64,000 nucleotides of DNA from Chloroflexota bacterium (GCA_028874795.1 JAPPHT010000056.1:75560-139559); one strand, 5' to 3'. Counted from the first letter of the stretch, positions 2,581 to 50,041 are shown. The notes: generated by a model from the sequence alone, not told the origin. A program made the numbers and translations.

Positions 2581-2709
2581 TCAGGGGACGCCCGTTCGTT
2601 CAGAGCATCCCTGAGTACGCGCATCCGGGCTGTGGATCGAGGGGTTCCGGGAACATGGCACCCGCCCCTTTCGCAATCGTCTCCTGTCCGCGTACGCGGG
2701 TCGAGAAGA

Positions 2710-2762
2710 TTGCACTGACCTGGCAGAAGGCATATGGTAGAAAGCGTCGCAGAGATTCTACC
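2710..2762 (+). promoter_or_regulatory. vapBC promoter TTGCAC-17-TATGGT with inverted repeat GGTAGAA-N13-TTCTACC (candidate operator)
   Basis: Read directly; the inverted repeat at 2736-2762 overlaps the -10. Confidence 0.6.
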
Positions 2763-2776
2763 CTGACGGTGCTCCG

Positions 2777-3034
2777 ATGAGCCTGAACATCAAGAATGAG
2801 GAGACCTGCCGGCTGGCGGGTGAACTCGCCGACCTCACCGGCGAGACGATGACCGGCGCGATCACGGTCGCCCTCAAGGAACGCCTGGAGCGCGAAAGGC
2901 ACCAGCGCAGCGTCGAGGAGCGGCTGCGCCGCATACGCGCCATCGCGGAACGCTTCGCGGCGCAGTTCCCCGACAGCGGCCCACCGATAGACCACGCCGA
3001 GCTGCTGTACGACGAGCGAGGCCTGCCGAAGTGA
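2777..3034 (+). CDS. vapB: Type II antitoxin VapB (Rv0623-like)
   Basis: MSLNIKNEETCRLAGELA.LTGETMT.AI..AL.ERL; GTGA overlap with the PIN gene. Confidence 0.9.
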   Translation: MSLNIKNEETCRLAGELADLTGETMTGAITVALKERLERERHQRSVEERLRRIRAIAERFAAQFPDSGPPIDHAELLYDERGLPK

Positions 3035-3429
3035 TCCTGGATGCGTCGGCGGTGGTCGCCATCCTGTTCCGGGAGAGCGATGCGCATCGATACGAGGAGG
3101 CGATAGCTGCCGCACCGTACTGCCGCATGTCAGTAGTCAACTTCGTAGAGGCGGCTATGGTCCTCGAAAGCAGGGACGGCCCGGCAAGAGGAGTGTCCCT
3201 TGATGTGTTCATGGAAACCGCGCACGTGGAAATGACTCCGGTCACCCCAGAGCACGCGTACGCCGCGCGGCAGGCATGGCGGCGCTTCGGCAAGGGCAAC
3301 CACCCTGCGGGGCTGAACTTCGGCGACTGCTTCGCCTACGCCCTCGCGCAGACCAGCGGCGAATCGCTGCTCTTCAAAGGCGGAGACTTCGCACTCACGG
3401 ACGTCGAGGACGCGCTCGCCCAGCAGTGA
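3031..3429 (+). CDS. vapC: PIN-domain toxin VapC
   Basis: ILDASAVVAIL..E; FGKGNHPAGLNFGDCFAYALA; LLFKGGDF. Confidence 0.93.
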   Translation: MILDASAVVAILFRESDAHRYEEAIAAAPYCRMSVVNFVEAAMVLESRDGPARGVSLDVFMETAHVEMTPVTPEHAYAARQAWRRFGKGNHPAGLNFGDCFAYALAQTSGESLLFKGGDFALTDVEDALAQQ

Positions 3430-3579
3430 CGTCCGCCTGTTTATGGTGAGGCTTTCGCCCTCCACCACTGACACCCACCCCCTTCCGCAGTCGCCCCCTG
3501 CCCCGCACGCTGGTCCCATGACGGCGTAGGACATGCGACAGGCTATACGCCAGCGTTACAATCCCATTGGGAGGGAATC

Positions 3580-4407
3580 GTGACGGCTGAGCAGAGGGCT
3601 TTGTTCTGCGTGTGGGCCGGGGAGGGCGGCAGGTACGCTGACGCATTCGTCAGGGGCGCGTACGTGGCCATTGGGTGGCCCGAAGTCCAGGACCTGCACA
3701 GGGTGGACTCCTACGATGAACTCCGCGAGCGGCTTCAGGAAGCGTACCCCAACGAGCCCTCGGGACGGGTACGCAACTACCTCGGCCAGATCGGCAACTT
3801 CGTTCTGAAGATGCATATCGGCGACCTCGTCATCACTCCCTGCCCTGACCACGGCCTCTTGCGCGTCGGCGAAGTGATCTCTTATCCGTTCAAGGTCCTG
3901 AATGTAGACGAATCTTCTCCCTATCCCCACAGGCGTAAGGTCGAATGGGGCATGGAACTCCGGCGCTCGGACCTGCCGGACGCCGTCCTGCGCTCGCTGG
4001 GGTCGTCCCAGGCGGTATTCCGCATCGAGGGAGCCGGGGCATGGCTGGAAGCGAACGGATACGCGCCGTTCTCACGGGAGACGGATGGCGGATGGGGCGG
4101 TGCGCCGGACTCGCATGTCCCTGCCCTCCTGGAAGTAGAGCCGCGCGAGGGCTATCGCCTCTGGCTGCGCTACGACAACGGAGTGTGCGGGGAAGTGGAC
4201 ATGTCGGACACTCCCCGAACGGGTGTATTCGCGGCATGGAACGACCGCGTCTTCTTCGCAACCGCACACCTCGACGGATACGGCGCCGTTGTATGGGGCG
4301 AGGATGAGCAGTTGGACGCCTGCGCCGACTATCTCTATATGCGGCTCACCGGCAAGTCTGCGGAGGAACTGATGCCGGGATTGCGGAGTTCACTGACCGA
4401 TGCCTGA
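3580..4407 (+). CDS. Fusion of an Mrr/COG4127-type N-terminal domain with a C-terminal DUF2442 antitoxin domain
   Basis: N-term VWAGEGG..F...YVAIGW..GQIGNFV.KM.IGDLV..PHRRKVEW; C-term EVEPREGYRLWLRYDNG..GEVD..VVWGEDEQLDACADYLY. Confidence 0.7.
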   Translation: MTAEQRALFCVWAGEGGRYADAFVRGAYVAIGWPEVQDLHRVDSYDELRERLQEAYPNEPSGRVRNYLGQIGNFVLKMHIGDLVITPCPDHGLLRVGEVISYPFKVLNVDESSPYPHRRKVEWGMELRRSDLPDAVLRSLGSSQAVFRIEGAGAWLEANGYAPFSRETDGGWGGAPDSHVPALLEVEPREGYRLWLRYDNGVCGEVDMSDTPRTGVFAAWNDRVFFATAHLDGYGAVVWGEDEQLDACADYLYMRLTGKSAEELMPGLRSSLTDA

Positions 4408-4660
4408 ACTCTGCCGCTTCTACGGCATCGTGGTTCGTATGCGCTACAACGACCATGACCCTCCACACTTTCACGCTGCCTACGGAGACCAGGAGGCCCA
4501 GATCAGGATAGACAACCTCGAAATCCTCAACGGACGACTGCCGGGACGCGCGATCCGCCTTGTCATGGAATGGGCGTCCCTGCATCAGGAAGAGCTGTGG
4601 GAGGTTTGGGAGCGCAGAACGCGCCAGGAGCCACTCGGCTCCATCGAACCGCTACCGTAG
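4400..4660 (+). CDS. DUF4160 family protein (HicA-like toxin)
   Basis: MPELCRFYGIVVRM.YNDHDPPHFHA.YG..LVMEWASLHQEEL..W. Confidence 0.88.
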   Translation: MPELCRFYGIVVRMRYNDHDPPHFHAAYGDQEAQIRIDNLEILNGRLPGRAIRLVMEWASLHQEELWEVWERRTRQEPLGSIEPLP

Positions 4661-4770
4661 ACCACTGCGACACCCGCCCCTTCCCCCATCGCTCCTTGCC
4701 CGCGTACGCTGGTTCCATGAGCGAAGCGACGGTCCGGGCAGCCGCAGCCGCCACCCGCACGTGTGGACCG

Positions 4771-4852
4771 GAACTGGCCGAAATGAGCCGTTCCTGGCCG
4801 AAATGAGCCGTTCCTGACCGGAAATGAGCTGCGGATGAGCGGTTTTGAGCCG
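4771..4852 (+). repeat. 20-bp tandem repeat (TTCCTGGCCGAAATGAGCCG, about 3 copies) decaying into 10-bp TGAGC units
   Basis: Read directly. Confidence 0.8.
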
Positions 4853-5081
4853 TCCGACAGTTCACTCGAAGGGCCGTTTCCAGAGGTGGATTCCGGGCGG
4901 ATGAACTGAAATGAACAGCACTTCCCCCCCAACGTTCACTGTGGTCCCCGTCAACCGCATCCTGTGCATCCCGTCTGCCCCGTAGACTCTGGCTCGGATG
5001 GCGGAGCGCGCCCCATTGACACCCCACCCCACGACACCTAGCCTCACGCGCAGGCGTCCACCCGACGCCACGGAGGAACAG

Positions 5082-6092
5082 ATGGCCACCATCGCAGGGA
5101 TCGTGCCGGAGGAGCTGGCGCAGCTGTCGCCGGAGGAGCTGTACGCCCTCTACATGGAGAAGCAGGTGAACTTCGGGCGCGCCGCGCTCGCGCTCGACAA
5201 GCGCAGGAAGCTGGGCCGCGTCCACGTCCCCGCCGAGGAGGCCGACGTGCAGAACGCCGGGCCGAACCAGCGCATGATCGTGGGGCCGGAGCTCGGCTTC
5301 AACGTTCACAACCTGCACGTCTTCACGTCCGGGCGCGCGGGCGGCTCGGAGCGTTACCACACCCACGGCGACGCGCTCAAGTTCTACGTGAAAGGCGGCG
5401 GCCAGGAGCTGATCGAGGACGTGCGGTTCGACGTGAAGGTCGGCGACTTCTGCCACGTCCCGGCGAACATCTGGCACGGCACCGAGAACCCGCACCCGGA
5501 GCCGCTCGTCTTCCTCGCCGCGCAGCAGTTCCCCGGCACCTACCGCCAGGTGCCGACGCCGTTCGTCCACATCGCCGCGCCCCACAAGGCCCCCGAGGTG
5601 AGCGACCTCTCCGACGAGGAGCTCGGCAAGCTGGAGCCGTGGCCGCTCTACCTCCGCTACCTGGAGGAGCAGATGGCGTTCGGGCGCGTCGCGCTGGAGA
5701 TGCAGCGCAGGCGGGAGCAGAAGCGCCTCCACGTCCCGGCGGAGGAGGCCCCCATCATGGAGTGGGGCCCCGGCAGGCACCACATCATGTCGCCGGAGCT
5801 CGGCTTCGACATCTACTCGTTCCAACTGTTCATGGAGAACGTCCCCGCGCGCACGGAGAACGGCTCGCCCCAGACCTCCGGCGACGCCGTCCGCTACTAC
5901 ATCGCCGGCGAGGGCGTCGAGGTCATCGGAGAGGAGCGCATCCACGTCCGCACGGGCGACTTCACCTGCATCCCCGCGGGGACGCGGAGCGAGACGACCA
6001 ACCCGCACGACGAGGACCTGCGCTTCATCAGCTGGCAGCAGATACCGGGCACCTACGTGCAGGTGCACATGCCCGTCCTGCCCGTGGACTAA
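5082..6092 (+). CDS. Bicupin protein, internally duplicated
   Basis: Two similar halves; first has YHTHGDA and WHGTEN, second has PQTSGDA; GGAGG RBS before ATG 5082. Confidence 0.8.
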   Translation: MATIAGIVPEELAQLSPEELYALYMEKQVNFGRAALALDKRRKLGRVHVPAEEADVQNAGPNQRMIVGPELGFNVHNLHVFTSGRAGGSERYHTHGDALKFYVKGGGQELIEDVRFDVKVGDFCHVPANIWHGTENPHPEPLVFLAAQQFPGTYRQVPTPFVHIAAPHKAPEVSDLSDEELGKLEPWPLYLRYLEEQMAFGRVALEMQRRREQKRLHVPAEEAPIMEWGPGRHHIMSPELGFDIYSFQLFMENVPARTENGSPQTSGDAVRYYIAGEGVEVIGEERIHVRTGDFTCIPAGTRSETTNPHDEDLRFISWQQIPGTYVQVHMPVLPVD

Positions 6093-6097
6093 CCCCC

Positions 6098-6121
6098 GTC
6101 ATTCCCGCGAAGGCGGGAATC
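6098..6121 (+). repeat. REP-like palindrome GTCATTCCCGCGAAGGCGGGAATC
   Basis: Directly after the cupin stop codon. Confidence 0.8.
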
Positions 6122-6233
6122 TCGCCCCCATGGAGTTGGGTGTCTGGTTCACTCTCCTGACGGAGAGGGGGAGGATGAGAGTACTGCGACAGGAACGGGT
6201 GTACGTGATGAGGAGCGACAAGGGGGAGCAGCC

Positions 6234-8399
6234 ATGACCACCTACCGCGGCCAGGGCATGGCCCGCATGGAGGACGAACGGCTGCTGCGCGGCGGCGGCA
6301 CGTTCGTCGACGACATCCAACTGGACGGCATGCTCCACGCCGCGGTGCTCCGCAGCACGGAGGCGCACGCCCGCATCCGATCGATCGACACTTCGGCCGC
6401 GCTTGCAAGTCCCGGTGTCGCCGTCGTCTACACCGGCGCGGACCTGGACGGCGTCGTGCCGGACATCGGCGCGATACGCCGCGAGGGCATGGGCGAGACG
6501 CCCGTCCCCGAGCACCCCGTGCTGGCGAAGGGCCGCGTCTGCTACGTCGGCCAGCCCGTCGCCCTCATCGTGGCCTCGACGCGAGCGCAGGCGTTCGACG
6601 CGCGTGACCGCATCGCCGTCGACTACGAGCCGCTCCCGCCCCTGCTCGACCCGCGCGAATCGGCGTCGGACGCCGCACCCCTCCACCCCGACATCGGCAC
6701 GAACGTCGTGATGCGCACGGAGGCGGGCGCGGGCAACGTCGCCGAGGCGTTCGAGAACGCCGACGAGATCGTCGAGGCCTCGTACGAGGTCCCCCGCCTC
6801 GTTGCGATGCCGATGGAGACCCGCGGCATCGTCGTCGCGCCGGACGCGGAGAGCGGACGGGTCACGGTGTGGACGTCCACGCAGGTGCCGCACCGCGTCA
6901 AGGCGTTCCTCGCGATGCTCCTTCCGGGCGACGTCGACGTGCGCGTCATCACCCCGGACGTCGGCGGGGGCTTCGGGCGCAAGATCGAGGTTTGGCCGGA
7001 AGAGGTCGTAGCGGCGTACGCGGCGGTACAGCTGGGCGCGCCGGTCAAGTGGACGGAGCAGCGCTCCGAGAGCACGCTCGCTTCGCACGGGCGCGGATTC
7101 ACCGCGGACGTGGAGGCGGCGGTGCGCTCGGACGGCACGATGCTCGGCGTCCGCATCCGCATGCTGGCAGATATGGGTGCCTACTTCCTCACGTCCAGCG
7201 GCGGGCCGCTGGGCAACGCCGTGCAGCGCGTCGCCGGGCCGTACGCCATCCCCGCGATGGACGTGGAGTGCCTCGGCGTGACGACGAACCGCCCTCCCAC
7301 GGGACCCTACCGCGGCGCGGGCGGGCCCGAGGCCGCCGTGCCCATCGAGCGCATCATGGACGACGCCGCGCGGCAGCTTGGCATGGACCCCGCCGAGATA
7401 CGACGCCGCAACTTCATCCCCGCCGACGCCTTCCCCTACCAGACCGCCACCGGCCTGCTCTACGACTCCGGCGACTTCCACACCGCGTTCGACCGCGCGC
7501 TCGGCATGGCCGGCTACGCGGGTCTACGCGAGCGGCAGGCGTCCGAAGGCGGCCCGTTCCGCACCGGCATCGGCGTCGCGACAGTCACCAAGGCGTCCGG
7601 CGGCAAGGCGGGTGTGCGCAAGAGCCTCACTCGCGTCGAGATGAAGCCGGACGGACGCGTGATCATCGTCACGGACGTATCGCCGCATGGCCAGGGCACG
7701 GCCACGTCGTTCTCGCAGATCGCGGCGGACACGCTCGGGATCGCCCCGGAGATGGTCGAACTCCACCACGGCGACACCGACGAGCTCGCGTCGGGCGGCG
7801 GCACGACGTCGAGCCGGGGCCTCGCGGTCGGCGGCAACGCGGCCTACCTGGCGCTCCAGGAGGTCAAGCGTCGGCTCGATGCCGCGGGCGGCGTCGTTCC
7901 CGCCAACGGCATCACGGTGGAACTGGAGTGGGAGCTGCCCGCCAACCCGTTCGGCTTCGCCGCCCACGTCGCGGTCGTTGAGCTGGACGAGGGCACCGGC
8001 GACGTGCGCCTCACGGACTACGCGGCAGTGCACGACTGTGGCCCGATGATCAACCCCGTCATCGTGCGCGGGCAGATACAGGGCGGCATCGCGCAGGGCA
8101 TCGGCCAGGCGCTGAGCGAGGGGATGCTCTACTCGGCGGCGGGCCAGCCCCGGACCGCCAGCTTCATGACCTACGGCATCCCCATTGCGGAATCGCTGCC
8201 CGCGTTCCTGCTGGAGAACCAGCAGACGCCCTCGCCGACCAACCCGCTGGGCATCAAGGGCATCGGCGAGCTGCCGACGGTCGCCGCGCCGGTGGCCGTC
8301 ACGAACGCGGTCGCGGACGCCCTCGCCCGCTCCGGCGCCGACGTGAGCGGCGTCGACATGCCGCTCCTCACCGAGCGCGTCTGGCGCGCCCTGGGGTGA
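6234..8399 (+). CDS. Xanthine dehydrogenase-family molybdopterin-binding large subunit (CoxL/CutL-like)
   Basis: R.ED.RLL.G.G.FVDD, DVGGGFG.K, PYRGAGGPE, GQG..T, GQIQGG, GIKGIGE. Confidence 0.9.
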   Translation: MTTYRGQGMARMEDERLLRGGGTFVDDIQLDGMLHAAVLRSTEAHARIRSIDTSAALASPGVAVVYTGADLDGVVPDIGAIRREGMGETPVPEHPVLAKGRVCYVGQPVALIVASTRAQAFDARDRIAVDYEPLPPLLDPRESASDAAPLHPDIGTNVVMRTEAGAGNVAEAFENADEIVEASYEVPRLVAMPMETRGIVVAPDAESGRVTVWTSTQVPHRVKAFLAMLLPGDVDVRVITPDVGGGFGRKIEVWPEEVVAAYAAVQLGAPVKWTEQRSESTLASHGRGFTADVEAAVRSDGTMLGVRIRMLADMGAYFLTSSGGPLGNAVQRVAGPYAIPAMDVECLGVTTNRPPTGPYRGAGGPEAAVPIERIMDDAARQLGMDPAEIRRRNFIPADAFPYQTATGLLYDSGDFHTAFDRALGMAGYAGLRERQASEGGPFRTGIGVATVTKASGGKAGVRKSLTRVEMKPDGRVIIVTDVSPHGQGTATSFSQIAADTLGIAPEMVELHHGDTDELASGGGTTSSRGLAVGGNAAYLALQEVKRRLDAAGGVVPANGITVELEWELPANPFGFAAHVAVVELDEGTGDVRLTDYAAVHDCGPMINPVIVRGQIQGGIAQGIGQALSEGMLYSAAGQPRTASFMTYGIPIAESLPAFLLENQQTPSPTNPLGIKGIGELPTVAAPVAVTNAVADALARSGADVSGVDMPLLTERVWRALG

Positions 8400-8409
8400 G
8401 GGGGACTGA

Positions 8410-8518
8410 TCCCCTCTCCTGGGGGAGAGGGTTAGGGTGAGGGCCCTGCGGGGTAGCGTGGGATGGGCTGGGGGCTGGTCCCTTCCCCCTCGATGGGGAA
8501 AGGTTAGGATGGGGGTGA
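8410..8518 (-). repeat. Two CCCTCACCCTAACCCTCTCCC...GGAGAGGGGA-type REP-like elements
   Basis: Copies at about 8410-8445 and 8479-8518; degenerate copy at about 6151-6182. Confidence 0.65.
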
Positions 8519-8624
8519 ATGGTGAGCCTGGCAAAGTTGCTACGTGTCCGCTGTGACACCCGCCCCTTGCGGTTCCCGTCCCCCGCCCTGCTACCATGCT
8601 CATACGCGCCCTGAAGGAGACGCC

Positions 8625-8848
8625 GTGACGACTGCACCGGCAGAGGACGTACCCCGCTACTTCCACGATTACGCCTTGGAGAACGAGCGGCAGCACAAGG
8701 AACTGCGCGATTACATCGACCGGGTGAGGATCGAACTCGGCGACCACCTCGGCAGGGTGGAAAGCAAACTCCGCATGATCAAGGCCATCAGCCTGGGCAT
8801 ATTCGGCACAGTGCTGCAGCGGCCTCCAAGTACGTCATCGGCTGGTGA
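8625..8848 (+). pseudogene. Small coiled-coil/C-terminal TM protein with a 1-nt deletion near 8815
   Basis: AAGGAG RBS and GTG start; MTTAPAEDVPRYFHDYALENERQH...IKAISLGIFGTVL then AAASKYVIGW* in a shifted frame, matching paralog 10169-10357. Confidence 0.75.
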
Positions 8849-9022
8849 ACCCACCGGAAGGCAGTGGCCTCATTTGGCCTCATTCCGGCCTTGTTCACGC
8901 TCGAACCGGCCCCGAAACGCCCCACCGTGGAGCCATCGGAACCCCGGAACGCACGAGTAAATGAGGCCAAACGATGCCAGATGCTGCCACAGTGACGGCG
9001 CTCGTCTGAAGGGAGGTCTCCT

Positions 9023-10042
9023 ATGGCTATCGCCCCAACCGGCCCGATCGACGCTGACGGCCACGTTCGCGACGACGACCGGCGCATGCGGCGGTTCATC
9101 GCGCCACCCTTCGACAAGCGCTCCCCGCTGGGCATCAGCGCCAACGATGGCTTCGACCGCCACCTGCAGGGCACGCTGGGCCTGTTCGACGTCGATGCTC
9201 CAACCTGGCAGCAGGCCCTGGACGAGGGCGGCCTCGCGGCGACCGTGCTCTTCCCGACCGTGGGCCTCCGCAACGGCCAGCTCCGGGAGCCCGACTTCGC
9301 GATCGCCCGCTGCCGCGCCTACAACGACTGGCTGCACAGCGAGTTCCTCAGCGTCGACGAACGGTTCAAGGGTGTCGCGCTCCTCCCCGTGCAGGACCCG
9401 TCGGCCGCTGCCGAGGAGCTCCAGCGGACAGTGCGCGACCTCGGGATGGTGGGAGGTATGCTCCCGGAGGGACCCTACGTCTACGGCGACTCGCGTTTCG
9501 ACTCCATCTACGCCGAGGCCGAGCGCCTCGGCTGCCCGATCACCATCCACGAAGGCGGGAACGTCTGGGACAGCGTTTACCACCACCTCTTCCCCCAGTT
9601 CGCAGAGGTGCACACCCTCGGCCATCCCTTTGCGCAGATGCGGCACCTCACGAGCGTCCTGTGCGAGGGCGTGCTCGTACGCTTCCCGAGGCTGAAGATA
9701 GGCTTCCTCGAGGCCGGCTGTACCTGGGTCCCATTCCTCCTGGACCGGATGGACGAGCGCTTCCGGTTACGAGGCGAACGGGAGATGCCGGCCCTGACGA
9801 GGCCGCCCAGCGACTATGTCCGCGACGGCAACGTCTACTTTACCTGCGAGGCCGAAGAGACCCTGCTCCCTGAGACGCTTCGCGTCATCGGCGACGGCGC
9901 CGTGATGTACGCCACGGACTTTCCGCACTGGGATGGCGAGTACCCTGAGAGCCTGCATACGCTCATGGCCCGCGCAGACCTCACCGAGGAGCAACGCGCT
10001 CGGATCACCGGCGGCAACGCCAGGGAGTTCTACGCTCTCTGA
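9023..10042 (+). CDS. Amidohydrolase family 2 protein
   Basis: IDADGH, RAYNDW, TIH, FLEAG, YATDFPHWD. Confidence 0.9.
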   Translation: MAIAPTGPIDADGHVRDDDRRMRRFIAPPFDKRSPLGISANDGFDRHLQGTLGLFDVDAPTWQQALDEGGLAATVLFPTVGLRNGQLREPDFAIARCRAYNDWLHSEFLSVDERFKGVALLPVQDPSAAAEELQRTVRDLGMVGGMLPEGPYVYGDSRFDSIYAEAERLGCPITIHEGGNVWDSVYHHLFPQFAEVHTLGHPFAQMRHLTSVLCEGVLVRFPRLKIGFLEAGCTWVPFLLDRMDERFRLRGEREMPALTRPPSDYVRDGNVYFTCEAEETLLPETLRVIGDGAVMYATDFPHWDGEYPESLHTLMARADLTEEQRARITGGNAREFYAL

Positions 10043-10168
10043 AGAGCACCGTTGTGACACGCGCCCCTTGCACGGCCGTATCCCGGCTCTGTATCGTTTC
10101 TGTGTACTCTTTGCCACAAGGGTGGCACAGCCTATCGATGGGCATGTCTGGACGCTGATGGAGACGAC

Positions 10169-10357
10169 ATGACGACTGGACCGGCAGATGACGAGCGCCA
10201 GCACATCGACTTGGGGGATGCAATCGACCAGATGGGGACCGAACTAAGCGATGACTTCGATGCGGTGATACGCGAGCTCCGCATTATCAAGGCGATCCAC
10301 CTGGGCATATTCGGCACCGTGTTCGTAGCCGCGTCCAAGTATGTCATCGGCTGGTGA
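10169..10357 (+). CDS. Small coiled-coil/C-terminal TM protein
   Basis: GGAG RBS; paralog of 8625-8848. Confidence 0.7.
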   Translation: MTTGPADDERQHIDLGDAIDQMGTELSDDFDAVIRELRIIKAIHLGIFGTVFVAASKYVIGW

Positions 10358-10389
10358 ATCGGCAGAAACGGCAGACCCAACACACGACA

Positions 10390-10419
10390 GACGGCGCACC
10401 ACCGCAGCGGTGCGCCGTC
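10390..10419. terminator. Hairpin between convergent genes
   Basis: GACGGCGCACC-N8-GGTGCGCCGTC. Confidence 0.6.
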
Positions 10420-10456
10420 CGTTCTCTACTCAGGTCCTGTTGTCGCTCGAAGACCC

Positions 10457-10918: not shown

Positions 10919-10967
10919 GGCATCCTCCTCGTTCCGTGTGCTGCTATCTTACGCCGTTCGACAAGCC

Positions 10968-34741: not shown

Positions 34742-34816
34742 TGGTCGGGGCGGCCAGGATCGAACTGGCGACCTCCTGCTCCCAAAGCAGGCGCGCTTCC
34801 GCTGCGCTACGCCCCG
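34742..34816 (-). tRNA. tRNA-Pro(TGG)
   Basis: CGGGGCG acceptor stem, CCTGC-TTTGGGA-GCAGG anticodon arm, GTTCGATC T-loop, encoded CCA. Confidence 0.95.
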
Positions 34817-35264
34817 GCGTGCTTCCAGTTTATCAGCACCTGCCCGTGCTCAGAGGAGACGGGGCGGCTGCGGGATCACGCTTGTGGACTGTCGCTGCGA
34901 CACGAGCCCCTTTCGCGGTCGCAGTCCTGCCGCCTACGCTGTCCTCGTCCCTTCGCTACCCAGCGGCGGTCTTCGATGAGGAAGGGTGGTTCAGGAGAAA
35001 AATGAGAAGGATTGAGAAGAAATGAGACACTTTTTTCGTTGCAGGATCGTCGCTGAGAGTGGGACAGGGGCCTCCACTCGGGGAGGTTGGTGTTCGTTCG
35101 GCGCTCGAACCCGCTCGCGACACGCAGTGGGAACGCTCACAACGTGCCGGAATGATGCTCAGACCGACCCCATGCCCGACCCTTCGGATATGTGACATCT
35201 GCCCGTTGTGCAGACGAATCACTCCTCCTTACCCTGAATGGAAACCACGGAGGAGGGACAGCAG

Positions 35265-35672
35265 ATGAATAACACGTTCAGTGGCATGGTCAGGAAGGAC
35301 AGCGGTCTCAGCCACCGGCAGGCGGCCGCGCTCCCCTACATCGCATCGGAGCCCACGCTCGCGCGGGGAGCGAACGCCGCTCAGATCGCGCGAAGCACCC
35401 TGGCGCGGTGGATGCGGGATCCCGCCTTCCGCGCGGAGCTGGAGTACATCCGCAACAACATGGCGGACCTCGCATTCGCCGAGCTGGAAGGGCTTGCGCT
35501 CAAGAGCGTCATCCGCTTGGCGGAACTGCTCGAGAGCGAGAACGAGAACGTGGCGCACCGTGCGCTGAAGACCGCAGTGGCCACCACCCAGACCCTCAGG
35601 GAGCAGCGCGCGCTCCGTCACAGGCTCGACCTGCTGGAGAACGCCCAGGTCATGATGAGGCAACAGCGATGA
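35265..35672 (+). CDS. HTH protein resembling phage terminase small-subunit / phBC6A51-type HTH
   Basis: LSHRQAAAL...AAQIARSTLARWMRDPAFRAEL then helical body (LAELLESENENV..RA); GGAGG RBS. Confidence 0.65.
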   Translation: MNNTFSGMVRKDSGLSHRQAAALPYIASEPTLARGANAAQIARSTLARWMRDPAFRAELEYIRNNMADLAFAELEGLALKSVIRLAELLESENENVAHRALKTAVATTQTLREQRALRHRLDLLENAQVMMRQQR

Positions 35673-36043
35673 GGACCTCCGCCAGGGGACTCGAACGCTA
35701 CTACGGATGCCTGCTCGCCCAGGCCGCGCTCCAACCCATCGCCGAGGACTACGTCGACCGCTGGATGGACGCCGTCGAGCGCGACGACTACCCGCCCGAC
35801 ATCGCTGAACTCTTCGAAGCCGCGGCAGCGGAGCGCGTCCCCGTCCTCAGCCCGATCCCCATCCAAGCCTACCTCCGCCAGTGCCTCAAGACCGGGCGCA
35901 TCCCGGACGAGACCCGCATCGTCCAGGCCATCGCCCACGCCTACGCTGAAGGAGACCTGATGAGGGTGGGCGAGACCTGCCGCTGCCCGGCCCGCCGTCC
36001 CCTCTTCCAGCGCCCCCGGCGTAACGGCTTCCAGGGGGATTAG
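35669..36043 (+). CDS. Hypothetical protein translationally coupled to the HTH gene
   Basis: ATGA overlap; MRTSARGLERYYGCLL...CRCP; high-GC3 codon usage. Confidence 0.65.
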   Translation: MRTSARGLERYYGCLLAQAALQPIAEDYVDRWMDAVERDDYPPDIAELFEAAAAERVPVLSPIPIQAYLRQCLKTGRIPDETRIVQAIAHAYAEGDLMRVGETCRCPARRPLFQRPRRNGFQGD

Positions 36044-36135: not shown

Positions 36136-37539
36136 ATGCTCATCCAGCGCGCTCCGGACGTGTACGAGAAGCTGCGCCACCTCGGCGGTATGGCGACCGA
36201 CGACGTGCTCTCACCCGCCGAGCGTTCGGATGGAATGGCGCGTCCGGGCGAGGGCTGGGAGAGCGTCGGGCCACGCGGCGGAGTCACGCCGCACGCTGGC
36301 GTCTACAGGGCCGCGATGCCGAATGGCAAGCGGATCTCACTCATGCGTGTGATGTTCACGGACCACTGCATCATGGACTGCCACTACTGCCCGAACTCCT
36401 ACTGGGTGCCTCGAAGGCGCTACGGCTTCAAGGTGGACGAACTGGCGCGTCTGTTCGACGAGATGCGCAGCCGACATCTGGTTGAGGGGCTCTTCTTGAG
36501 CTCCGGCATCTTCAAGGACCCCAACGCAACCCAGGAGCGACTGCTGGACGTGGTGGAAGCGGTGCGCTCACGCTACGGCTTTCGGGGATACGTGCATCTG
36601 AAGGTGATGCCCGGCACGAACGACGAGGCGTTGATCGAACAGAGCCAGCGCCTCGGCGCGCGGCTGTCCGTGAACATGGAGGCCCCTTCCGCCGAGCACC
36701 TGCGGAAGCTCAGCGCGATGAAAGACTTCGACAACGGCATCCTCGCGCCCATGAGACGCATCAGCGAACTCATGCAGGAGCGCTACGGCGGCGCGGTCGG
36801 CCAGGCCACGCAGCTCGTCGTTGGCGCCGCCGACGAGTCTGACTGGGACATCTACACGCGGGTGCGGACCCTCTATGGCGACTACGGATTCAAGCGCGTC
36901 TACTACTCGGCGTTCCGCCCCGTGAAACACACGCCGCTGGAGGAACACCCCGCAACTCCGCCCGTGCGCGAGCACCGCCTGTACCAACTGGACTGGCTCT
37001 CCCGCATCTACGGCTACGAGGCGGAGGAGCTGCGCCCTGCCTTCGACCCGGGAGGATTCCTCGAACTGCGCGCCGACCCCAAGCTGATGATCGCGGTGAA
37101 CGACTTCGAGCGGTTCCCGGTTGACGTGAACAGGGCGAGCGAGCAGGACCTGTTGCGCGTCCCCGGTGTCGGGCCGCTGGCGGCGAGCCGCATCGTGAAG
37201 CAGCGCGCGCAGCACTCCATAACACGGCGCCAGGAGCTGCAGGCGATGGGCGTGGTGCTGAAACGCGCCATGCCCTTCCTGCGGTTCCCGGGGCACACGC
37301 CCGCGCCGGCAACGCAGGGCGAACTGCCCCTCTTCCCTCTTTCCCGTCATTCCCGCGAACCTTCTCATCATTCCCGCGAACTCTCTCGTCATTCCCGCGA
37401 ACTCTCTCGTCATTCCCGCGAAGGCGGGAACCCAGCAGCCCCCTCCTCGCGACGGACGGTGGACCTGCACGCCGCGCACGCGGCCTCGGGCTGCGCGTCG
37501 TGTCCACTCAACCCCGGCACATGCGGGATGGCTGCGTAG
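36136..37539 (+). CDS. Putative DNA modification/repair radical SAM protein with HhH motif
   Basis: CIMDCHYC, EGLFLSSG, FRGYVHLK, RVYYSAF, REHRLYQ.DWL.R.YG, LLRVPGVG; GGGAGGT RBS. Confidence 0.9.
   Translation: MLIQRAPDVYEKLRHLGGMATDDVLSPAERSDGMARPGEGWESVGPRGGVTPHAGVYRAAMPNGKRISLMRVMFTDHCIMDCHYCPNSYWVPRRRYGFKVDELARLFDEMRSRHLVEGLFLSSGIFKDPNATQERLLDVVEAVRSRYGFRGYVHLKVMPGTNDEALIEQSQRLGARLSVNMEAPSAEHLRKLSAMKDFDNGILAPMRRISELMQERYGGAVGQATQLVVGAADESDWDIYTRVRTLYGDYGFKRVYYSAFRPVKHTPLEEHPATPPVREHRLYQLDWLSRIYGYEAEELRPAFDPGGFLELRADPKLMIAVNDFERFPVDVNRASEQDLLRVPGVGPLAASRIVKQRAQHSITRRQELQAMGVVLKRAMPFLRFPGHTPAPATQGELPLFPLSRHSREPSHHSRELSRHSRELSRHSREGGNPAAPSSRRTVDLHAAHAASGCASCPLNPGTCGMAA
37339..37433 (+). repeat. 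4 x 21-bp tandem REP half-units plus a closing arm, in frame within the CDS
   Basis: CTCTCTCGTCATTCCCGCGAA-like x4 then GGCGGGAACCC, translating as (LSRHSRE)x4-GGNP. Confidence 0.85.
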
Positions 37540-38080: not shown

Positions 38081-38216
38081 CCATGCTTCCGGGGCGACGG
38101 CACACCCTCTCTCTCGGCTCTGCGATTGCATTCATTCGCATGTGTCAGTACGCTGTTGCCAGAGCCGATATCATGGGATACCGTAGTATCAGGCATTCGA
38201 GCAGGGAGCACGAAGC

Positions 38217-40677: not shown

Positions 40678-40723
40678 AGGAATCTCCTCTGGCGCAGGAG
40701 CGCATGAAGGAACAATGGCGGCT

Positions 40724-40804: not shown

Positions 40805-40882
40805 CCAGCCATAGAGAGGTCTACCGTGAGGTAGTCCCTGCCTGAGCCATAGCATCGGTTTTGAACGAAGTTTAGGAAATTG

Positions 40883-41509: not shown

Positions 41510-41716
41510 TTGACGGCGTTCCAGCGGCAGATCCCCGAAGAGGAAGACCTCAAGCGCATGCTCGAAAGAGCGGGGATGGTCCTTTCCGAGGAAGACCTCC
41601 AGACCATGGCGACGGCCTTTCCCTCCGTCCGGGCCCAGTTGGAGCGGCTGTATTCCTATAACTTCGATGGAGAGTCCTATCCGTTCCGCACCATCTTCCC
41701 CGAGACGAATGCATGA
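41510..41716 (+). CDS. Small amidase-partner protein (GatC/AtzG-like position and size)
   Basis: 68 aa, ATGA overlap with the amidase; LERAGMVLSEEDLQ. Confidence 0.6.
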   Translation: MTAFQRQIPEEEDLKRMLERAGMVLSEEDLQTMATAFPSVRAQLERLYSYNFDGESYPFRTIFPETNA

Positions 41717-43107: not shown

Positions 43108-43170
43108 TGCGGCGCCGTCACGAGGGAAGCGGCGTATGGGCGCAGGCGAGCGGGCAAAGACGGTGACCAC

Positions 43171-45288: not shown

Positions 45289-45332
45289 CGAGACGAGACT
45301 CACGCGTAAAGTGCGAGCAAAGGAGACCCGAT

Positions 45333-46616
45333 ATGAAGATGAGGACCGTTGCACGTAGGCCCGCTATTCTGCTGAGCTTGATGACCCTGGTTTTGATGTC
45401 GCTCCTGGGCGCCTGTGGAGGTGAAGACCCGACACCCACCTCCCCACCCTCCCAGCCTGCGGCCGCCACACCCACATCCGCACCCGCGCCGGCCGCGGAA
45501 CCCACGCCCACGCTGGCGCCCGGACAACCCACGCCCACACCGAGCCCGCCCACTCCCACACCCAGCACCACAACCGGCCCGGCGCCTGCTCCCGCTCCAA
45601 CTCCCACGGTCCCTCCCCCGGACCCATCGTTCGACGCTGAAGGCTACTTCAGCGGCAGGACGATCAAGTTCACGGTGGGCTTCTCTCCGGGCGGCGGCTT
45701 CGACGCCTTCACACGGATCCTGGCGGTGCATCTGCCGCGGTTCATTCCAGGCAGTCCCAAGATCGTGGTCAGCAACCTGCCGGGCGCGGCGTCCCTGCTC
45801 ACCGCACGGGCTACCGCAGGGAGAGCCCCGGGTGACGGCTTCGACATCGGCGTCTTCACGCAGGGCCTGCTCATCCAATCGCTGCTCGGAGTCGAGTTCG
45901 AGGGGTTCGAGCCGACCGAGTTCGTCTTCGTCGGTCTGCCAGACAACACCCCATCGAGAGGAGCGATCTGCGTTCGCGCCGATTCGGCGGACAGCCTCGA
46001 CTCCTTCGTGAACAGCCCGCGTCCGTTCCGCTTGGGAGAGTCGCAGCCAGGCTCATCTCCGGCGCCCCACGAGGAATGGCTGGTGATGGCAGGCCTGCCG
46101 ATAGAGATCATCTACGGCTACCAGGGGACCGCCGACGTCCGTGTCGCGTTCGAACGCGGCGAGATCGAAGTGACCTCGCGCTGCGACGATTCCGCGCTCC
46201 CGGCGTACCCTCACTGGGCAGACCCTGCAGTCGTCACGCCTTTGTTCCACCACACGCAGTTGCCGCCAGATTGGGTGGTGGAGGGCCAGGCGAACGGCCT
46301 GTACCCGTGGTTCAAGCCCCTGCGCGAAGTCGTCAGCGTCAGTGACATCCTCATGACCGCGCTGGAGTTGGAAACGAGCCTTGCGGGCAGCCGCGTCTTC
46401 GCCCTGCCCCCAGGCACGCCGCCAGAGGTCGCCCACGTGATCAGGGAGGCGTTCGCCACTGCGGTGGAATCCGGTGCCTTCAAGGCGGACATGCGGACCC
46501 GTGGATACACGACCGGACTGCTGAGAGGTACGGAACTGCAGGAACGCGTACAGAGATTCGCAGACCAGCCGGCAGAGGTACTCACGGTGCTCCGCGACAT
46601 GTACAAGATCGAGTGA
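45333..46616 (+). CDS. tctC: TctC/Bug-like substrate-binding lipoprotein with Pro/Thr linker
   Basis: LGAC lipobox; VGFSPGGGFD..R, NLPGA, GYQG...ERGE. Confidence 0.85.
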   Translation: MKMRTVARRPAILLSLMTLVLMSLLGACGGEDPTPTSPPSQPAAATPTSAPAPAAEPTPTLAPGQPTPTPSPPTPTPSTTTGPAPAPAPTPTVPPPDPSFDAEGYFSGRTIKFTVGFSPGGGFDAFTRILAVHLPRFIPGSPKIVVSNLPGAASLLTARATAGRAPGDGFDIGVFTQGLLIQSLLGVEFEGFEPTEFVFVGLPDNTPSRGAICVRADSADSLDSFVNSPRPFRLGESQPGSSPAPHEEWLVMAGLPIEIIYGYQGTADVRVAFERGEIEVTSRCDDSALPAYPHWADPAVVTPLFHHTQLPPDWVVEGQANGLYPWFKPLREVVSVSDILMTALELETSLAGSRVFALPPGTPPEVAHVIREAFATAVESGAFKADMRTRGYTTGLLRGTELQERVQRFADQPAEVLTVLRDMYKIE

Positions 46617-46631
46617 TCGAGTAGCGTCGCA

Positions 46632-46674
46632 CCCGGAGTCTCCCGGCCCATATTCGAAGCCGGGAGACTCCGGG
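46632..46674 (+). terminator. 16-bp stem hairpin after tctC
   Basis: CCCGGAGTCTCCCGGC-N11-GCCGGGAGACTCCGGG. Confidence 0.6.
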
Positions 46675-46753
46675 CGCAGTGCTCCCCGGGCCCTGCGTAC
46701 AATGCTGCCGTGAGGTTTCGACGTACAACCGATAGCGGGGAGCCCTAGCAGCC

Positions 46754-47269
46754 GTGCAGGCTGACGACGCCTTCCGCCGGGCGCTGCACACCAGCTTCGT
46801 CATCCGCGTGACCCATAGAGGACGCCGGAGCGGCCTTCCCCGCGTCCTGGAAACGACCTACTACTGGGACGGCGCGGGCAAGCTCTACCTCTCCGGTTAT
46901 CCCGGCAGGCGGGACTGGGTGGCCAACATGGGCGCACACCCGGACGCTACGGTCTATACGGTTGAGCGCGGACAGTGGTTCGCCGTGGCGGCGACAGCGC
47001 GCGTGCTTCGCTCACGGCACGAGCGCACGCCCTACGTCATGGCATACGTGCGGCACTGGCTGCGCCTGGGTGGAGGCCAGCGCCGCCTCATCGGCTGGGT
47101 CCTGTGTGCCGTGCAAGTGAACCGCGCGCTCCGCCTGCCGTGGTGGGGCCCGTTCTACTGCATCCGCCGGGTGTTCGACGCCATGCCATGCGTCGAGCTG
47201 ACGCTGACCGGCACGCCCGTCCCGTTGGACGCGCCGCCGCCCGACCCCACCCTTCCGCGGAGCGCGTAG
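46754..47269 (+). CDS. Deazaflavin (F420)-dependent nitroreductase-like split beta-barrel protein
   Basis: THRGRRSGLPR, RDWVANM.A.P. Confidence 0.7.
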   Translation: MQADDAFRRALHTSFVIRVTHRGRRSGLPRVLETTYYWDGAGKLYLSGYPGRRDWVANMGAHPDATVYTVERGQWFAVAATARVLRSRHERTPYVMAYVRHWLRLGGGQRRLIGWVLCAVQVNRALRLPWWGPFYCIRRVFDAMPCVELTLTGTPVPLDAPPPDPTLPRSA

Positions 47270-47516
47270 CTGAAATCCGCTCATACATCGTCAGCCTGCC
47301 GTTGACATCGCGCTAACCTACCGCGTACAGTGCCGCCCTGTAGCATGGCCGTGTATAATGCGCGGAATACACCCATGAATCTGCCCCGATCCGACAAGAA
47401 GGCCGGCGTCGAACTACCCCGACACAGGTACTCGCCAACGCTATGATGCATAGCCCATCCAGCCGTCGTATCGGTTCACCCCGCAGGACATCCCCCCTGG
47501 TCAGGAGCACTTCGTC

Positions 47517-48602
47517 ATGAGCGCCTCCGTCGGCTTCCATCTGCCCTCCAGCGCCGCATCCCGGCTGGACATGCTGGTGGACAGCATCGAGTCGAACCAA
47601 GGCCCGCTGCTCAACCCCGCAGAGATGCGCGCGGCGTCAGCGAGTCTGGACATCCGCAGCGCCATCGAGCAGTTGCCGGAAGGAATGACCCTCGATGACT
47701 TCGTGGGCATCCTCAAGCTGGCGATGCTGACCGAGTGCGCCACGGACTCTTACTCCGCTGTCTTCCAGGACGGCGCCGAGCGCTTCGACGCTCCCTGGCT
47801 GGCGCGTTTCAATGCGCAGGTCTGGACACCCGACGAGCACACGCACTACACGCCGTACAAGCTCATGCTCCAGTCCCTTGGTTACTCCGAGGAGGAGCTG
47901 GACCTCGAGATGCGCGAGGTGCAGGACCGGAACTACGAGCACTGCTGCGGCCGTACTCCCATCGAACTGACCACCTACGGCATCATCCAGGAGTACCTGA
48001 CGGACAACTGGCACGGCATGATCAGCCAGTTGCTCAAGCCGTCCGCCCCTTATGCAGCGAGATGCGCCTCTATGGTCAAACGCCGCGAGACGCTGCACAC
48101 CACCTGGTACCGCGAGATGACTGCCATCCAGTTGGAAGAGAACCCCGCGATGCTGGAGCTTGTCGCGAATACCGTCCTCTCGTTCCAGATGCCCGGGACC
48201 CGGCTGGTGCCCGAGTTCGGCACGCGGTCGCTGGAGTGGATGAGCAAGGCCAATGTGGACTTCCCCCGCGTCGCCAGGGACTTCGTGCGCAACTTCCAGC
48301 AGGTCGCAGGGACGATGAAGCGTGCCGGTCAGCTCTTCGTGGAACTCGCGGCGAAGCGCGACGTACGGTTCGGCCCCGTGCCGATCTCCGCATTCCGGCG
48401 GATAATGGACAAGATCGGTGGGGCGGGCTACGGCATCATCGGCGAGGCCCTGCTCGACAAGTTCGGCATCCCGCGGCCAACCAGCCAGAACCAGACCGGG
48501 CCGATCAACCTGCCGCCACGGATGTACGAGGCGTTCCGCTCCCGCATGCGCAGCATGATCACCCGGCGCATAGAAACAGCCGCCATCATCGGCGAGGTCT
48601 AA
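47517..48602 (+). CDS. Acyl-ACP desaturase-like di-iron protein
   Basis: TE....Y, WTPDEHTH, QE, ETLH ligand pattern. Confidence 0.75.
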   Translation: MSASVGFHLPSSAASRLDMLVDSIESNQGPLLNPAEMRAASASLDIRSAIEQLPEGMTLDDFVGILKLAMLTECATDSYSAVFQDGAERFDAPWLARFNAQVWTPDEHTHYTPYKLMLQSLGYSEEELDLEMREVQDRNYEHCCGRTPIELTTYGIIQEYLTDNWHGMISQLLKPSAPYAARCASMVKRRETLHTTWYREMTAIQLEENPAMLELVANTVLSFQMPGTRLVPEFGTRSLEWMSKANVDFPRVARDFVRNFQQVAGTMKRAGQLFVELAAKRDVRFGPVPISAFRRIMDKIGGAGYGIIGEALLDKFGIPRPTSQNQTGPINLPPRMYEAFRSRMRSMITRRIETAAIIGEV

Positions 48603-48682
48603 CGGCCATTCCAAAGCTGCCACGTCTGCCACTGCGGCCAGCGGTGCGCGCCGCGAAGCGCGCCGGTACTCCCGCTGCCGAC

Positions 48683-49867
48683 ATGCTCGCACGAAGAGCA
48701 TTCTTCGCCGCCGTAGGCAGCATCAAGCTCGGTTCCCTGCGCGTCGACACGCCCAACCACAGGTCCTACTCCTTCGAGACGACCACTCCCGGCCCCCAGG
48801 GCGTGCTCCGCATACACGACGAATCGTTCTACCGGCGCGTGATCACCGGCGGAGAGATAGGCTTCGGCGAGGCGTATCAGGACGGCCTCTGCGACTCGCC
48901 TGACCTCGTGCAACTGCTCATGCTCGCGGTCCTCAACCGCCAGGCGGTCAACCTGAACCGCGGGCCTATGCGCCTGCTCTCCAAGCGCGCCAACCTCCGC
49001 CTGCACCGCTCGCGGGCCAACACCAGGGACCAGAGCAAGGACAACATCCACGCCCACTACGACCTGGGCAACTCCTTCTTCGAACTCTTCCTGGACGAGA
49101 CGCTCACCTACTCCAGCGCCGTCTTCGCCTTCGACGGCCAGCTGCTGAGGGACGCGCAGGCCAACAAGTACCAGCGCATGTGTGAGTTCGCGGGCATCAC
49201 TGCCGGAAGCCGGGTGCTGGAGATCGGCAGCGGATGGGGCGGCTTCGCCATCCACGCGGCCCGTGAGTTCGGCTGCCACGTCACCACCGTGACCATCTCC
49301 CAGGAGCAGTTCGACCTCGCCACGCAGCGCATCCGGGAGGCGGGCCTGAGCGATCGCATCGACGTCCGCCTCATGGACTACCGCGACGTCGCCGGCTCGT
49401 TCGACAGCATCGTGTCCATCGAGATGTTCGAGGCCGTCGGTGCAGAGTTCTTCGAGACGTTCTTCCTCAAGTGCGCCTCGCTGCTGAAGCCCGGCGGCAG
49501 GCTGGCGATGCAGGTGATCACCGTGCCGGACCGCAACTTCGCGGCCCAGAAGAGCGGCGTGAACTGGATACAGAAGTACATCTTCCCCGGCGGCGTTCTA
49601 CCCTCCCTCTCCGCGATGGAGCAGGCGAACGCCCGAACGGGCCTCGTCGTCGCGAGCCTCGACCACATCGGCCAGCACTACGCCGTGACGCTGCGGCAGT
49701 GGCGCAGGACGTTCTGGGACCGCATCGAGGACGTGCGCGCCCTCGGTTACGACGAGCGCTTCGTCAGGACGTGGGACTACTACCTCGCCGCCTGCGAGGC
49801 CGGCTTCCTCACCAACAACACCGACGACCTGCAGATCGTCTTCGAGAAGCCCGCCAGCCACGCGTGA
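48683..49867 (+). CDS. cfa: Cyclopropane-fatty-acyl-phospholipid synthase family methyltransferase (start uncertain)
   Basis: NIHAHYDLGN, TYSSA, LEIGSGWG, SIEMFEAVG, IQKYIFPGG. Confidence 0.92.
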   Translation: MLARRAFFAAVGSIKLGSLRVDTPNHRSYSFETTTPGPQGVLRIHDESFYRRVITGGEIGFGEAYQDGLCDSPDLVQLLMLAVLNRQAVNLNRGPMRLLSKRANLRLHRSRANTRDQSKDNIHAHYDLGNSFFELFLDETLTYSSAVFAFDGQLLRDAQANKYQRMCEFAGITAGSRVLEIGSGWGGFAIHAAREFGCHVTTVTISQEQFDLATQRIREAGLSDRIDVRLMDYRDVAGSFDSIVSIEMFEAVGAEFFETFFLKCASLLKPGGRLAMQVITVPDRNFAAQKSGVNWIQKYIFPGGVLPSLSAMEQANARTGLVVASLDHIGQHYAVTLRQWRRTFWDRIEDVRALGYDERFVRTWDYYLAACEAGFLTNNTDDLQIVFEKPASHA

Positions 49868-50041
49868 CTTACGTCCGTCCCGCGCGAGCGGAGATGCAGA
49901 GCAACCGCCAGGTCGGGCGAGGCGGCAGAACCCTTCCCGCGATCTGGTGACACGCGCCCCTTGCGCCGTCGTGCGCAGCCCGCAGACCATCCTGACAGGA
50001 GCAACGCGCACCCCTGCACTCGTAGGCAGGACGGCCAAGCG

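Follow-up and report, generated by a model that had tools for sequence, protein, structure and literature searches.

A strictly spaced promoter module in front of about 130 transcription units of a Dehalococcoidia genome points to an undescribed regulator

In promoters controlled by class II activators, such as CRP and FNR (bound at -41.5) or MarA and SoxS (bound at their marboxes), the protein site abuts or overlaps a weak -35 hexamer and lies at a fixed distance from a normal -10. In mycobacteria, PafBC governs by 'sigma adaptation' a LexA-independent recA promoter class (RecA-NDp) of about 150 genes, with a canonical -10, no canonical -35, and an upstream element for the factor that is read together with sigma-A (PMC8635444). 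The promoters of the gene transfer agent (GTA) RcGTA are read by GafA, an activator that contacts RNA polymerase (RNAP; PMC9638019). A promoter module that shares features with these systems was found in a 64,000-nucleotide stretch of DNA (C79:75560-139559; in the following, the window) from a 3.33-Mb Chloroflexota assembly of 90 contigs and 66% G + C. It consists of a conserved box, a weak -35 and a strictly spaced -10, and it heads about 130 transcription units in this genome (G000). Affiliation with the class Dehalococcoidia was confirmed by the nearest named RecA loci, all labelled 'MAG: Dehalococcoidia bacterium' (MAG, metagenome-assembled genome), and the Pfam content of the window is that of an ordinary chromosomal region (amidohydrolases, Rieske and molybdopterin enzymes, TctA transporters, nrdAB). 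A literature search of a limited collection, which included the string GACATTTGCCC and promoter motifs of SAR202 or Chloroflexi, retrieved no description of the element.

The module spans approximately 49 bp and comprises the box, a weak -35 (TTnCGC), a fixed 18-bp spacer, and a -10 of the form TAnnnT. In this genus the box reads TGTGACAC-N-CGCCCCTT and lies at about -51 to -35 relative to the predicted transcription start, whereas the core common to all lineages that carry it is GACAY-N-YGCCC-N-TT. The poor -35 hexamer overlaps the 3' end of the box, a partly conserved CGCnnnCG follows at -33 to -26, and the usual -10 is TACGCT, followed by GGT. Within the window, seven matches to TGTGACACNCGCCCCTT with at most three mismatches were found, all on the plus strand, whereas shuffled sequences led to an expectation of 0.71 and none of 100 shuffles reached seven. 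The whole genome contains 124 matches to this 17-mer at the same stringency, on both strands, and in 56 of the 73 matches with at most two mismatches and sufficient flanks TAnnnT begins exactly 39 nt after the first base. In a profile built from 57 seeds, the information content is high at positions 1-8, 10-17, 19-26, and 40-48. Conservation sets in abruptly at base 1, positions 9, 18, and 27-39 contribute almost nothing, and the flanks carry no signal, either upstream or farther than +4 from the -10. The unconstrained positions therefore are saturated with changes, and the remainder is under selection.

A census with a two-block position weight matrix (PWM) at a threshold of at least 12 bits detected 128 sites in the 3.33-Mb genome, as compared to a single site in the reversed genome used as control. 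The gap between box and -10 is exactly 22 nt (TT.CGC-N18-TAnnnT) in 109 of the 122 sites that score at least 14 bits; it is 1 nt shorter in eight, 1 nt longer in three, and 2 nt longer in two. The fixed distance claimed in the preliminary description, which was made from the window alone, thus is real and even stricter than had been proposed. Although gene calls (2,808 genes, obtained by crude codon-usage picking of open reading frames, ORFs) cover 81.5% of the bases, 126 of the 128 sites lie outside them (p about 1e-89). The next gene is co-oriented at 106 of 127 sites and on the opposite strand at 21, with one further site lacking a next gene (p 7e-15). The -10 has the form TAnnnT in 106 and nAnnnT in 123 of the 128 sites, the dominant versions being TACGCT (44 sites), TACCAT (16), and TACCCT (11). 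With eight sites, the window is denser than the genome, where a mean of 2.5 would be found in 64 kb. The module is real, strictly spaced, directional, and under purifying selection. As a separate observation, three divergent promoter pairs (C33:3410/3416, C59:16084/16089, and C78:94275/94280) share one overlapping box, which in these cases forms a perfect palindrome of the AAGGGGCG-G-GTGTGACAC-C-CGCCCCTT type around GTGNCAC.

The box promoters are distinct from the ordinary promoters of the genome, which are of the TTGACA-N17/18-TAnnnT type. The pattern TTGnnn-N17-TAnnnT has 303 matches (260 intergenic), against about 150 (80 intergenic) at off-spacings, and these promoters read TTGACa without any conservation upstream. 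Conversely, TT.CGC-N18-TA[CG][CG]nT occurs 52 times in the genome, 49 times within box sites. The promoter upstream of the 16S rRNA gene is TTGACA-N17-TAGGCT and has no box (best PWM score -9.1). As it is missing from the rRNA promoter and from most promoters of the TTGACA kind, the box marks a distinct promoter class. Transcription from this class probably starts about 7 nt past the -10, and the evidence for this position consists of leaderless ATGs in G000 and in a second Dehalococcoidia lineage, G457: in six long ORFs of G000 (among them radA, radC, two AAA_25 genes, and NAPRTase) an ATG lies 0-2 nt from the predicted point, and four paralogues in G457 start at -1 relative to it. With this start, the centre of the box would be at about -43.

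Recognition by sigma-A together with a box-bound protein best accounts for a -10 of canonical form next to a poor -35, for the rigid spacing, and for the predicted position of the box centre at about -43. It is thus probable, at a moderate degree of confidence, that these are sigma-A promoters of class II geometry which need a postulated activator or adaptor bound to the box. The -10 would be read by the housekeeping sigma-A polymerase, a protein at the box, sitting where class II activators sit, would make up for the weak -35, and all box-bearing promoters would form one regulon. An adaptor like PafBC (PMC8635444) or like the TetR-type factor of the Pcauto promoters (PMC6873888) would be compatible as well. 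The existence and identity of the trans-acting factor, the signal that it would answer, and the transcription start are what we infer here. Of the two readings offered in the preliminary description, the 'undescribed activator regulon' is the better one and the best supported, as the box is selected at orthologous promoters and marks a distinct class; its activator is a predicted one. The element itself is larger and older than could be seen in the window.

As in class II activator promoters, the protein site would lie by a weak -35 and one factor would serve on the order of 100 promoters. In contrast to them, the box is asymmetric, GC-rich, and without a known consensus, its spacing is far more uniform, no class I positions were seen, and the regulator is hypothetical. 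The preliminary description had likened the TGTGA in the box to the distal half-site of class II CRP/FNR promoters, in which case a dimeric regulator of the cAMP-receptor family would bind there. TGTGA indeed is about where such a half-site would sit, and the box centre would be near -43, but the assignment is highly improbable: TCACA is absent, the proximal half is CCCCT and equals the distal half in conservation in the 57-seed profile, and TGTGA itself is not conserved, as it becomes CATGA or TGGGA in other lineages (whose boxes read CATGACAT or TGGGACAT), where GACAY-N-YGCCC stays and GACAY is the common part. A further likeness exists to the Pcauto promoters and their factor CAETHG_0459, where a lineage-specific motif is reported on essential and metabolic genes and sigma-A acts with an RNAP-binding factor (PMC6873888). 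That system belongs to another phylum and has another motif, and its factor and start sites were shown experimentally, whereas they are predicted here.

The sites in the window and the features around them are as follows.

2654..2702, plus strand: box promoter before vapB-vapC (box 2654-2670, -10 TACGCG at 2693-2698; PWM 34.9 bits)
2777-3034 and 3031-3429: VapB (PSK_trans_fac) and PIN genes; the ORF starts 72 nt past the predicted transcription start of the 2654 promoter
3467..3515, plus strand: marginal box promoter before the DUF2442/DUF4160 pair (-10 CACGCT; PWM 14.0 bits, box half 3.9 bits)
3580-4407 and 4400-4660: DUF2442 and DUF4160 genes (Pfam)
4666..4714, plus strand: box promoter of a cupin/molybdopterin-dehydrogenase operon (PWM 46.2 bits)
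5082-6092 and 6234-8399: genes of this operon, behind a non-coding leader of roughly 280-370 nt
8552..8601, plus strand: box promoter before a small coiled-coil ORF and an amidohydrolase gene (spacer 1 nt longer, -10 TACCAT; PWM 26.0 bits)
9023-10042: Amidohydro_2 gene downstream of the 8552 promoter
10053..10101, plus strand: box promoter before a 62-aa ORF at 10169-10357 (-10 TATCGT; PWM 31.9 bits)
34745-34816, minus strand: tRNA gene directly upstream of the 34896 box (Rfam, 65.9 bits)
34896..34944, plus strand: box promoter followed by a non-coding cassette of repeated words, which extends for about 250 nt up to the next box (PWM 46.2 bits)
35191..35239, plus strand: box promoter of a terminase-small-subunit-like helix-turn-helix (HTH) gene (PWM 41.3 bits)
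35238-35672, 35669-36043, and 36136-37539: the HTH gene, a 124-aa gene, and a radical-SAM/HhH gene (Radical_SAM and HHH_3) behind the 35191 promoter
38141..38157, plus strand: non-member of the class (PWM -4.5 bits)
49946..49994, plus strand: box promoter of nrdA-nrdB (weak -10 GACCAT, leader of about 186 nt; PWM 31.8 bits)
50183-52582 and 52731-53729: NrdA and NrdB genes (Pfam)
53796..53812, plus strand: non-member of the class (PWM -16.9 bits)

Seven of the ten sites that had been listed beforehand are strong (26-46 bits) and the one at 3467 is marginal (14.0), whereas those at 38141 and 53796, with their negative scores, do not belong to the set; the first box begins at 2654 instead of 2657. 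The downstream genes had been named correctly, as VapB/PIN, DUF2442/DUF4160, and NrdA/NrdB were identified by Pfam and the terminase-like HTH gene by PHROG (E 1e-6). The ORF behind the 10053 promoter is a paralogue of that behind the 8552 promoter, the downstream sequences of both sites cluster together, and a second copy of the 8552 box occurs at the same place in G005 and G011. Apart from the one tRNA, an Rfam search of the window at the gathering threshold yielded no hit.

Strict matches to the module occur in all 21 other genomes of the genus (g1), with 1-93 copies each and none in the controls, but the three further genera of the family that were searched have none. Among 16 families besides this one, 3 contain 1-3 matches each. 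At the recA promoter, every one of the 22 genomes of the genus has the box. Outside the genus it was found in G022, in a weak form in G023, and as the CATGACAT variant in G028, which belongs to another family, whereas it is absent from the five other genomes examined. Among 18 close-clade genomes, 17 have retained both the box and the weak -10 GACCAT of the nrdA promoter, at a distance of 177-220 nt from the ATG and with majority-base frequencies of 0.91 (box) and 0.99 (-10) as compared to 0.52 and 0.57 in the upstream and downstream flanks; four distant members of the genus have another nrdA promoter or a weak box. The box of the cupin operon (4666 in the window) has kept its position in 9 of the 11 loci from other genomes of the genus, with upstream flanks that are unrelated, and in 14 of the 21 protease loci a variant box lies at the corresponding point before the operon for a phage-type protease and capsid protein. 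Genera whose RecA proteins are 81-88% identical still share the boxes at recA, nrdA, and the capsid operon. Such orthologous persistence with a fixed core requires selection for function, even if copying spread the module.

Beyond the genus, a search for the core GACAYNYGCCCNTT, which has 59 matches in G000, revealed 5-31 matches in each of four genomes of g8 in a sample of 151 genomes of the order, and 35 in G191 and 9 in G457 in a sample of 301 genomes of the class; g8, G191 (a member of g111), and G457 represent other lineages of Dehalococcoidia. Most other genomes of order and class were at the control level (0-3), and the congeners of G191 in g111 have 0-7. One of the genomes searched, G390, is unpublished and contributes to none of the conclusions. 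In these three lineages the module has the form [C/T][A/G][T/G]GACAYYYGCCCNTTGAC-N17/18-TAnnnT, in which the box abuts a consensus -35 (TTGAC), and the core is fused to TTGAC at 30 loci in g8, 21 in G191, and 9 in G457. Among 24 downstream ORFs of g8 with matches in G000, ispF (two ORFs), cinA, and the glyoxalase-like gene of the radC operon are box-bearing in both, and recA is box-bearing in both g1 and g8.

The fusion to a consensus -35, which in g8, G191, and G457 is preceded by an A-tract, raises the question of whether the box could be an element intrinsic to RNAP, i.e., an extended -35 or UP-like sequence that is read by a polymerase subunit and makes strong constitutive promoters without any regulon. 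The alpha C-terminal domain, region 4 of sigma-A, or the long basic N-terminal extension that sigma-A carries in G000 would be the readers, and such a role would agree with the use of the box by essential genes (leuS, argS, rpsT, rplI-dnaB, and prs, and rpsB in G457) and with a core that is common to several orders of the class. This explanation nevertheless seems unlikely, as the rRNA promoter is a perfect TTGACA-N17 without box, about 400 ordinary promoters show no trace of it, the two halves of the box differ and would not suit two identical alpha domains, and most genomes of order and class are at control-level counts. Known UP elements are A + T-rich (-40 to -60), unlike the GC-rich box. 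An UP element or a general strength signal was also rejected on the grounds that the box is GC-rich and the rRNA promoter has none.

A considerable part of the sites, 55 of 128, lead into non-coding cassettes made of repeated words, which fall into downstream-similarity clusters of 50 (including the 34896 site) and 5 members. The words of these cassettes (34947-35190 in the window; about 55 sites in the genome) are specific to each copy, repeated three to four times with a period of 10-11 nt, and followed further on by their complements; the conserved centre is GGAAGCAGGCCACGGCC. For one cassette type, 25 of 46 matches to the 3' motif have the box at a fixed position approximately 173 nt upstream. 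Downstream of the box in g8 lies a short GGAAGCAGGC... hairpin that carries a run of T. The promoter of the cassettes is the box module, which also stands alone elsewhere. As an additional observation, the nrdA 5' leader (about 50000-50180 in the window, and the loci of other genomes) contains a conserved CACTCGTAGnCACTC-like element that is present in cassettes as TTCACTCGTGGA.

The cassettes bear on the second reading in the preliminary description, the promoter-carrying end of a small mobile element. In this case, the module would have been copied as the leading (5') part of a non-coding cassette or small mobile unit that multiplied, with solo copies as remnants or captured promoters, so that the similarity would reflect descent rather than a shared factor. 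The 55 cassette-heading sites and the fixed 173-nt offset fit this, as do the patchy copy numbers (1-93 in the genus, 35 vs. 0-7 in g111) and the cupin locus, where the BLAST matches to other genomes set in exactly with the first base of the box and the toxin-antitoxin modules inserted upstream come and go, each bringing its own box. The vapBC and DUF2442/DUF4160 modules (2400-4660 in the window), each with its own box promoter, are present, absent, or elsewhere in the genomes of the genus. Reuse of promoters is documented: putative mobile promoters are reported to be near-identical promoter regions before unrelated genes, some of them linked to repeats (PMC3575422). Here, by contrast, about 30 of 49 positions are conserved, and the copies are old, orthologous, and selected instead of recent duplicates.

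That the box is the fixed 5' end of a cassette in 55 of 128 sites with patchy copy number stands, but the copies that stand alone before recA, nrdA, and the capsid operon are old, correspond to each other between genomes as orthologues, and are not recent insertions, and they persist across genera. The unconstrained positions are saturated while the core is fixed, and neither terminal inverted repeats nor target duplications were found around the 57-seed profile (a systematic search for empty sites was not made). A miniature inverted-repeat transposable element (MITE) or insertion sequence (IS) end was rejected because there is no conservation outside the 49 bp and because the orthologous promoters of recA, nrdA, and the cupin and capsid operons have the box. 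Copying without any regulon logic is therefore a rather doubtful account of the whole set.

The genes behind the box were annotated by Pfam or PHROG for the first ORFs of 80 sites of at least 25 bits and the eight window sites, together with 20 ORFs from 15 weaker sites (103 of 128 sites in total, first or second ORFs). Targets in DNA metabolism are recA, radA, radC, uvrB, cinA, a comM-like gene, SRAP, ham1, gyrB, ku, the operons nrdAB and rplI-dnaB, and the radical-SAM/HhH gene. Phage-type targets are four terminase-small-subunit-like (TerS-like) paralogues, two terminase-large-subunit-like (TerL-like) genes, a portal gene, and an operon encoding a protease, an 82-aa protein, and the major capsid protein. 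Further targets comprise toxin-antitoxin systems (vapBC, hicAB three times, SocA/Panacea, DUF2442/DUF4160), mobile genes (two serine recombinases, two AAA_25 genes), regulator-like genes (XRE twice, an IrrE-like peptidase), housekeeping genes (leuS, argS, trpS/tyrS, rpsT followed by lexA, prs, ispF, lipA, icd), and about 35 catabolic enzymes.

The DNA-metabolism targets invite comparison with PafBC. As there, a separate LexA box regulon exists alongside in G000; however, the PafBC element is at -23 to -28, whereas the box is at -51 to -35, G000 has no WYL protein, and the box set includes housekeeping, phage-head, and cassette promoters (PMC8635444). A WYL/PafBC regulator was rejected, as PF13280 has no match in G000 (97% complete) but matches in control genomes, and so was a PafBC-type promoter, whose -26 element stands 8 nt upstream of TAnnnT, since the box lies 22 nt upstream of the -10 and the GTC at about -29 to -27 is two nt off register. 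WhiA, whose sites read GACAC, was rejected because PF02650 has no match in G000. LexA was rejected because its palindromic GAAC-N4-GTTC is found neither in the box module nor upstream of recA; Cheo-type LexA boxes (AGAAC-N4-GTTCT) lie at C36:989, just upstream of lexA (C36:1025), and at C27:7319, C31:16800/16833, and C61:67994. The lexA gene itself follows rpsT behind a promoter that consists of box plus cassette. The box-driven HTH paralogues were likewise rejected as regulators, since their PHROG matches and fold point to small terminases.

G000 encodes one primary sigma factor with a normal region 4 and the long basic N-terminal extension, and five extracytoplasmic function (ECF)-type genes of 143-200 aa. 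All five have an anti-sigma-like gene behind them, and three are near-identical copies; a sixth region-4 match is a PAS-LuxR protein. That a small alternative sigma reads the box and TACGCTGGT as its own -35 and -10 would account for the rigid spacing, as expected for recognition by a single protein, and for a -10 region more constrained (TAC..TGG) than in ordinary promoters, and the reverse complement of the box contains TGTCACA, presumably the -35 motif of ECF41 (TGTCACA-N16-CGTC). This possibility is nonetheless improbable in view of the sigma inventory, of a box counted 32 nt from the -10 and thus too far for a -35, and of the essential genes that depend on box promoters. An ECF-sigma promoter was rejected, as the -10 is TAnnnT and not CGTC and all five ECF genes are paired with anti-sigma-like genes.

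Several points weigh against an activator regulon. No candidate factor was found in G000 among the WYL, WhiA, sigma, and HTH paralogues examined, and the asymmetric box has no known cognate family. Start sites and promoter activity are predictions from sequence, the gene calls are crude, and annotation covers first or second ORFs of 103 of 128 sites. The patchy copy number (1-93 in the genus; 35 vs. 0-7) fits copying as well as a regulon. The targets are heterogeneous, with tRNA synthetases, S20, L9-dnaB, and many catabolic enzymes among them, and uvrA, ssb, and dprA have no box within 500 nt, for which reason a complete DNA-damage regulon was rejected; no single physiological theme is therefore proven.

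The phage-type targets are scattered among metabolic genes at C4:55853-58441, C22:17682-18962, C79:14510-16330, C84:19537-20682, and, in the window, 35238-35672, each behind a box promoter, and comprise the protease-capsid operon and the portal, TerL-like, and TerS-like genes. Of 21 genomes of the genus, 20 have one copy each of the capsid and protease genes. Their identity of 74-94% parallels that of NrdA and RecA, and in several genomes the two genes lie about 20 kb from recA. As expected of a GTA, conserved phage structural genes thus are inherited vertically, and they are headed by the box. The TerL-like gene is multi-copy (2-26 tblastn pieces per g1 genome, with 50-90% identity between copies), and the strict box pattern occurs upstream in at least 9 of 23 fetched g1 TerL loci. 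In G028 the phage genes still form a cluster and TerS-TerL is preceded by a box-like site, and in G007 TerL, a box-like site, and the protease and capsid genes are adjacent. The TerS-like HTH protein yielded an AlphaFold2 model with a confidence (pLDDT) of 83.7 whose best fold matches are small terminases, at weak scores (E 0.12-2.7); a PDB profile search with an HTH paralogue gave nothing better than E 0.36. All phage-type genes seen are for head, packaging, and connector functions, and the scattered set looks like a domesticated, possibly GTA-like, head module.

Many terminases thus accompany one capsid, as the TerL-like gene is multi-copy and G000 has four TerS-like paralogues while the capsid gene is single-copy. 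In G457, four leaderless paralogues of 139-165 aa with an N-terminal GNQNARKHG-type motif lie behind box promoters, and one of them has a weak PHROG terminase-small-subunit match (4e-4); neither these paralogues nor an HTH_23 protein of G457 are homologous to the G000 proteins. With RcGTA under GafA, the set shares vertically inherited phage-derived head and packaging genes and a dedicated promoter type; it differs in that no GafA-like gene is known here, the head genes are scattered singly or as mini-operons, TerL-like and TerS-like genes are multi-copy, and the system is known from head and packaging genes alone (PMC9638019).

A speculative and rather unlikely extension of these findings is that the box is the control element of an ancient GTA-like programme in SAR202-type Dehalococcoidia, in which one RNAP adaptor would switch on three gene sets: the domesticated and now scattered capsid, portal, protease, and terminase genes, a recombination toolkit (recA, radA, radC, cinA, comM, ku, nrdAB), and mobile and toxin-antitoxin genes. 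The approximately 55 box-led cassettes could then be pac-like landing sites for the four TerS paralogues rather than RNA genes.

The module and its gene set point to an undescribed regulator. They place recA and further recombination genes beyond the reach of the LexA box, an arrangement also found in mycobacteria but built there from different parts, and vertically inherited phage head genes in the same promoter class as recA; elsewhere, such evidence first flagged GTAs. Marine Dehalococcoidia, SAR202 among them, are abundant bacteria that have not been cultured, and to our knowledge nothing is known about the control of transcription in them. With a precisely defined cis-element, a 49-bp module that has about 130 sites in this genome, strict matches by the tens in most members of the genus, and a core common to several orders, regulation in these bacteria is open to direct test.

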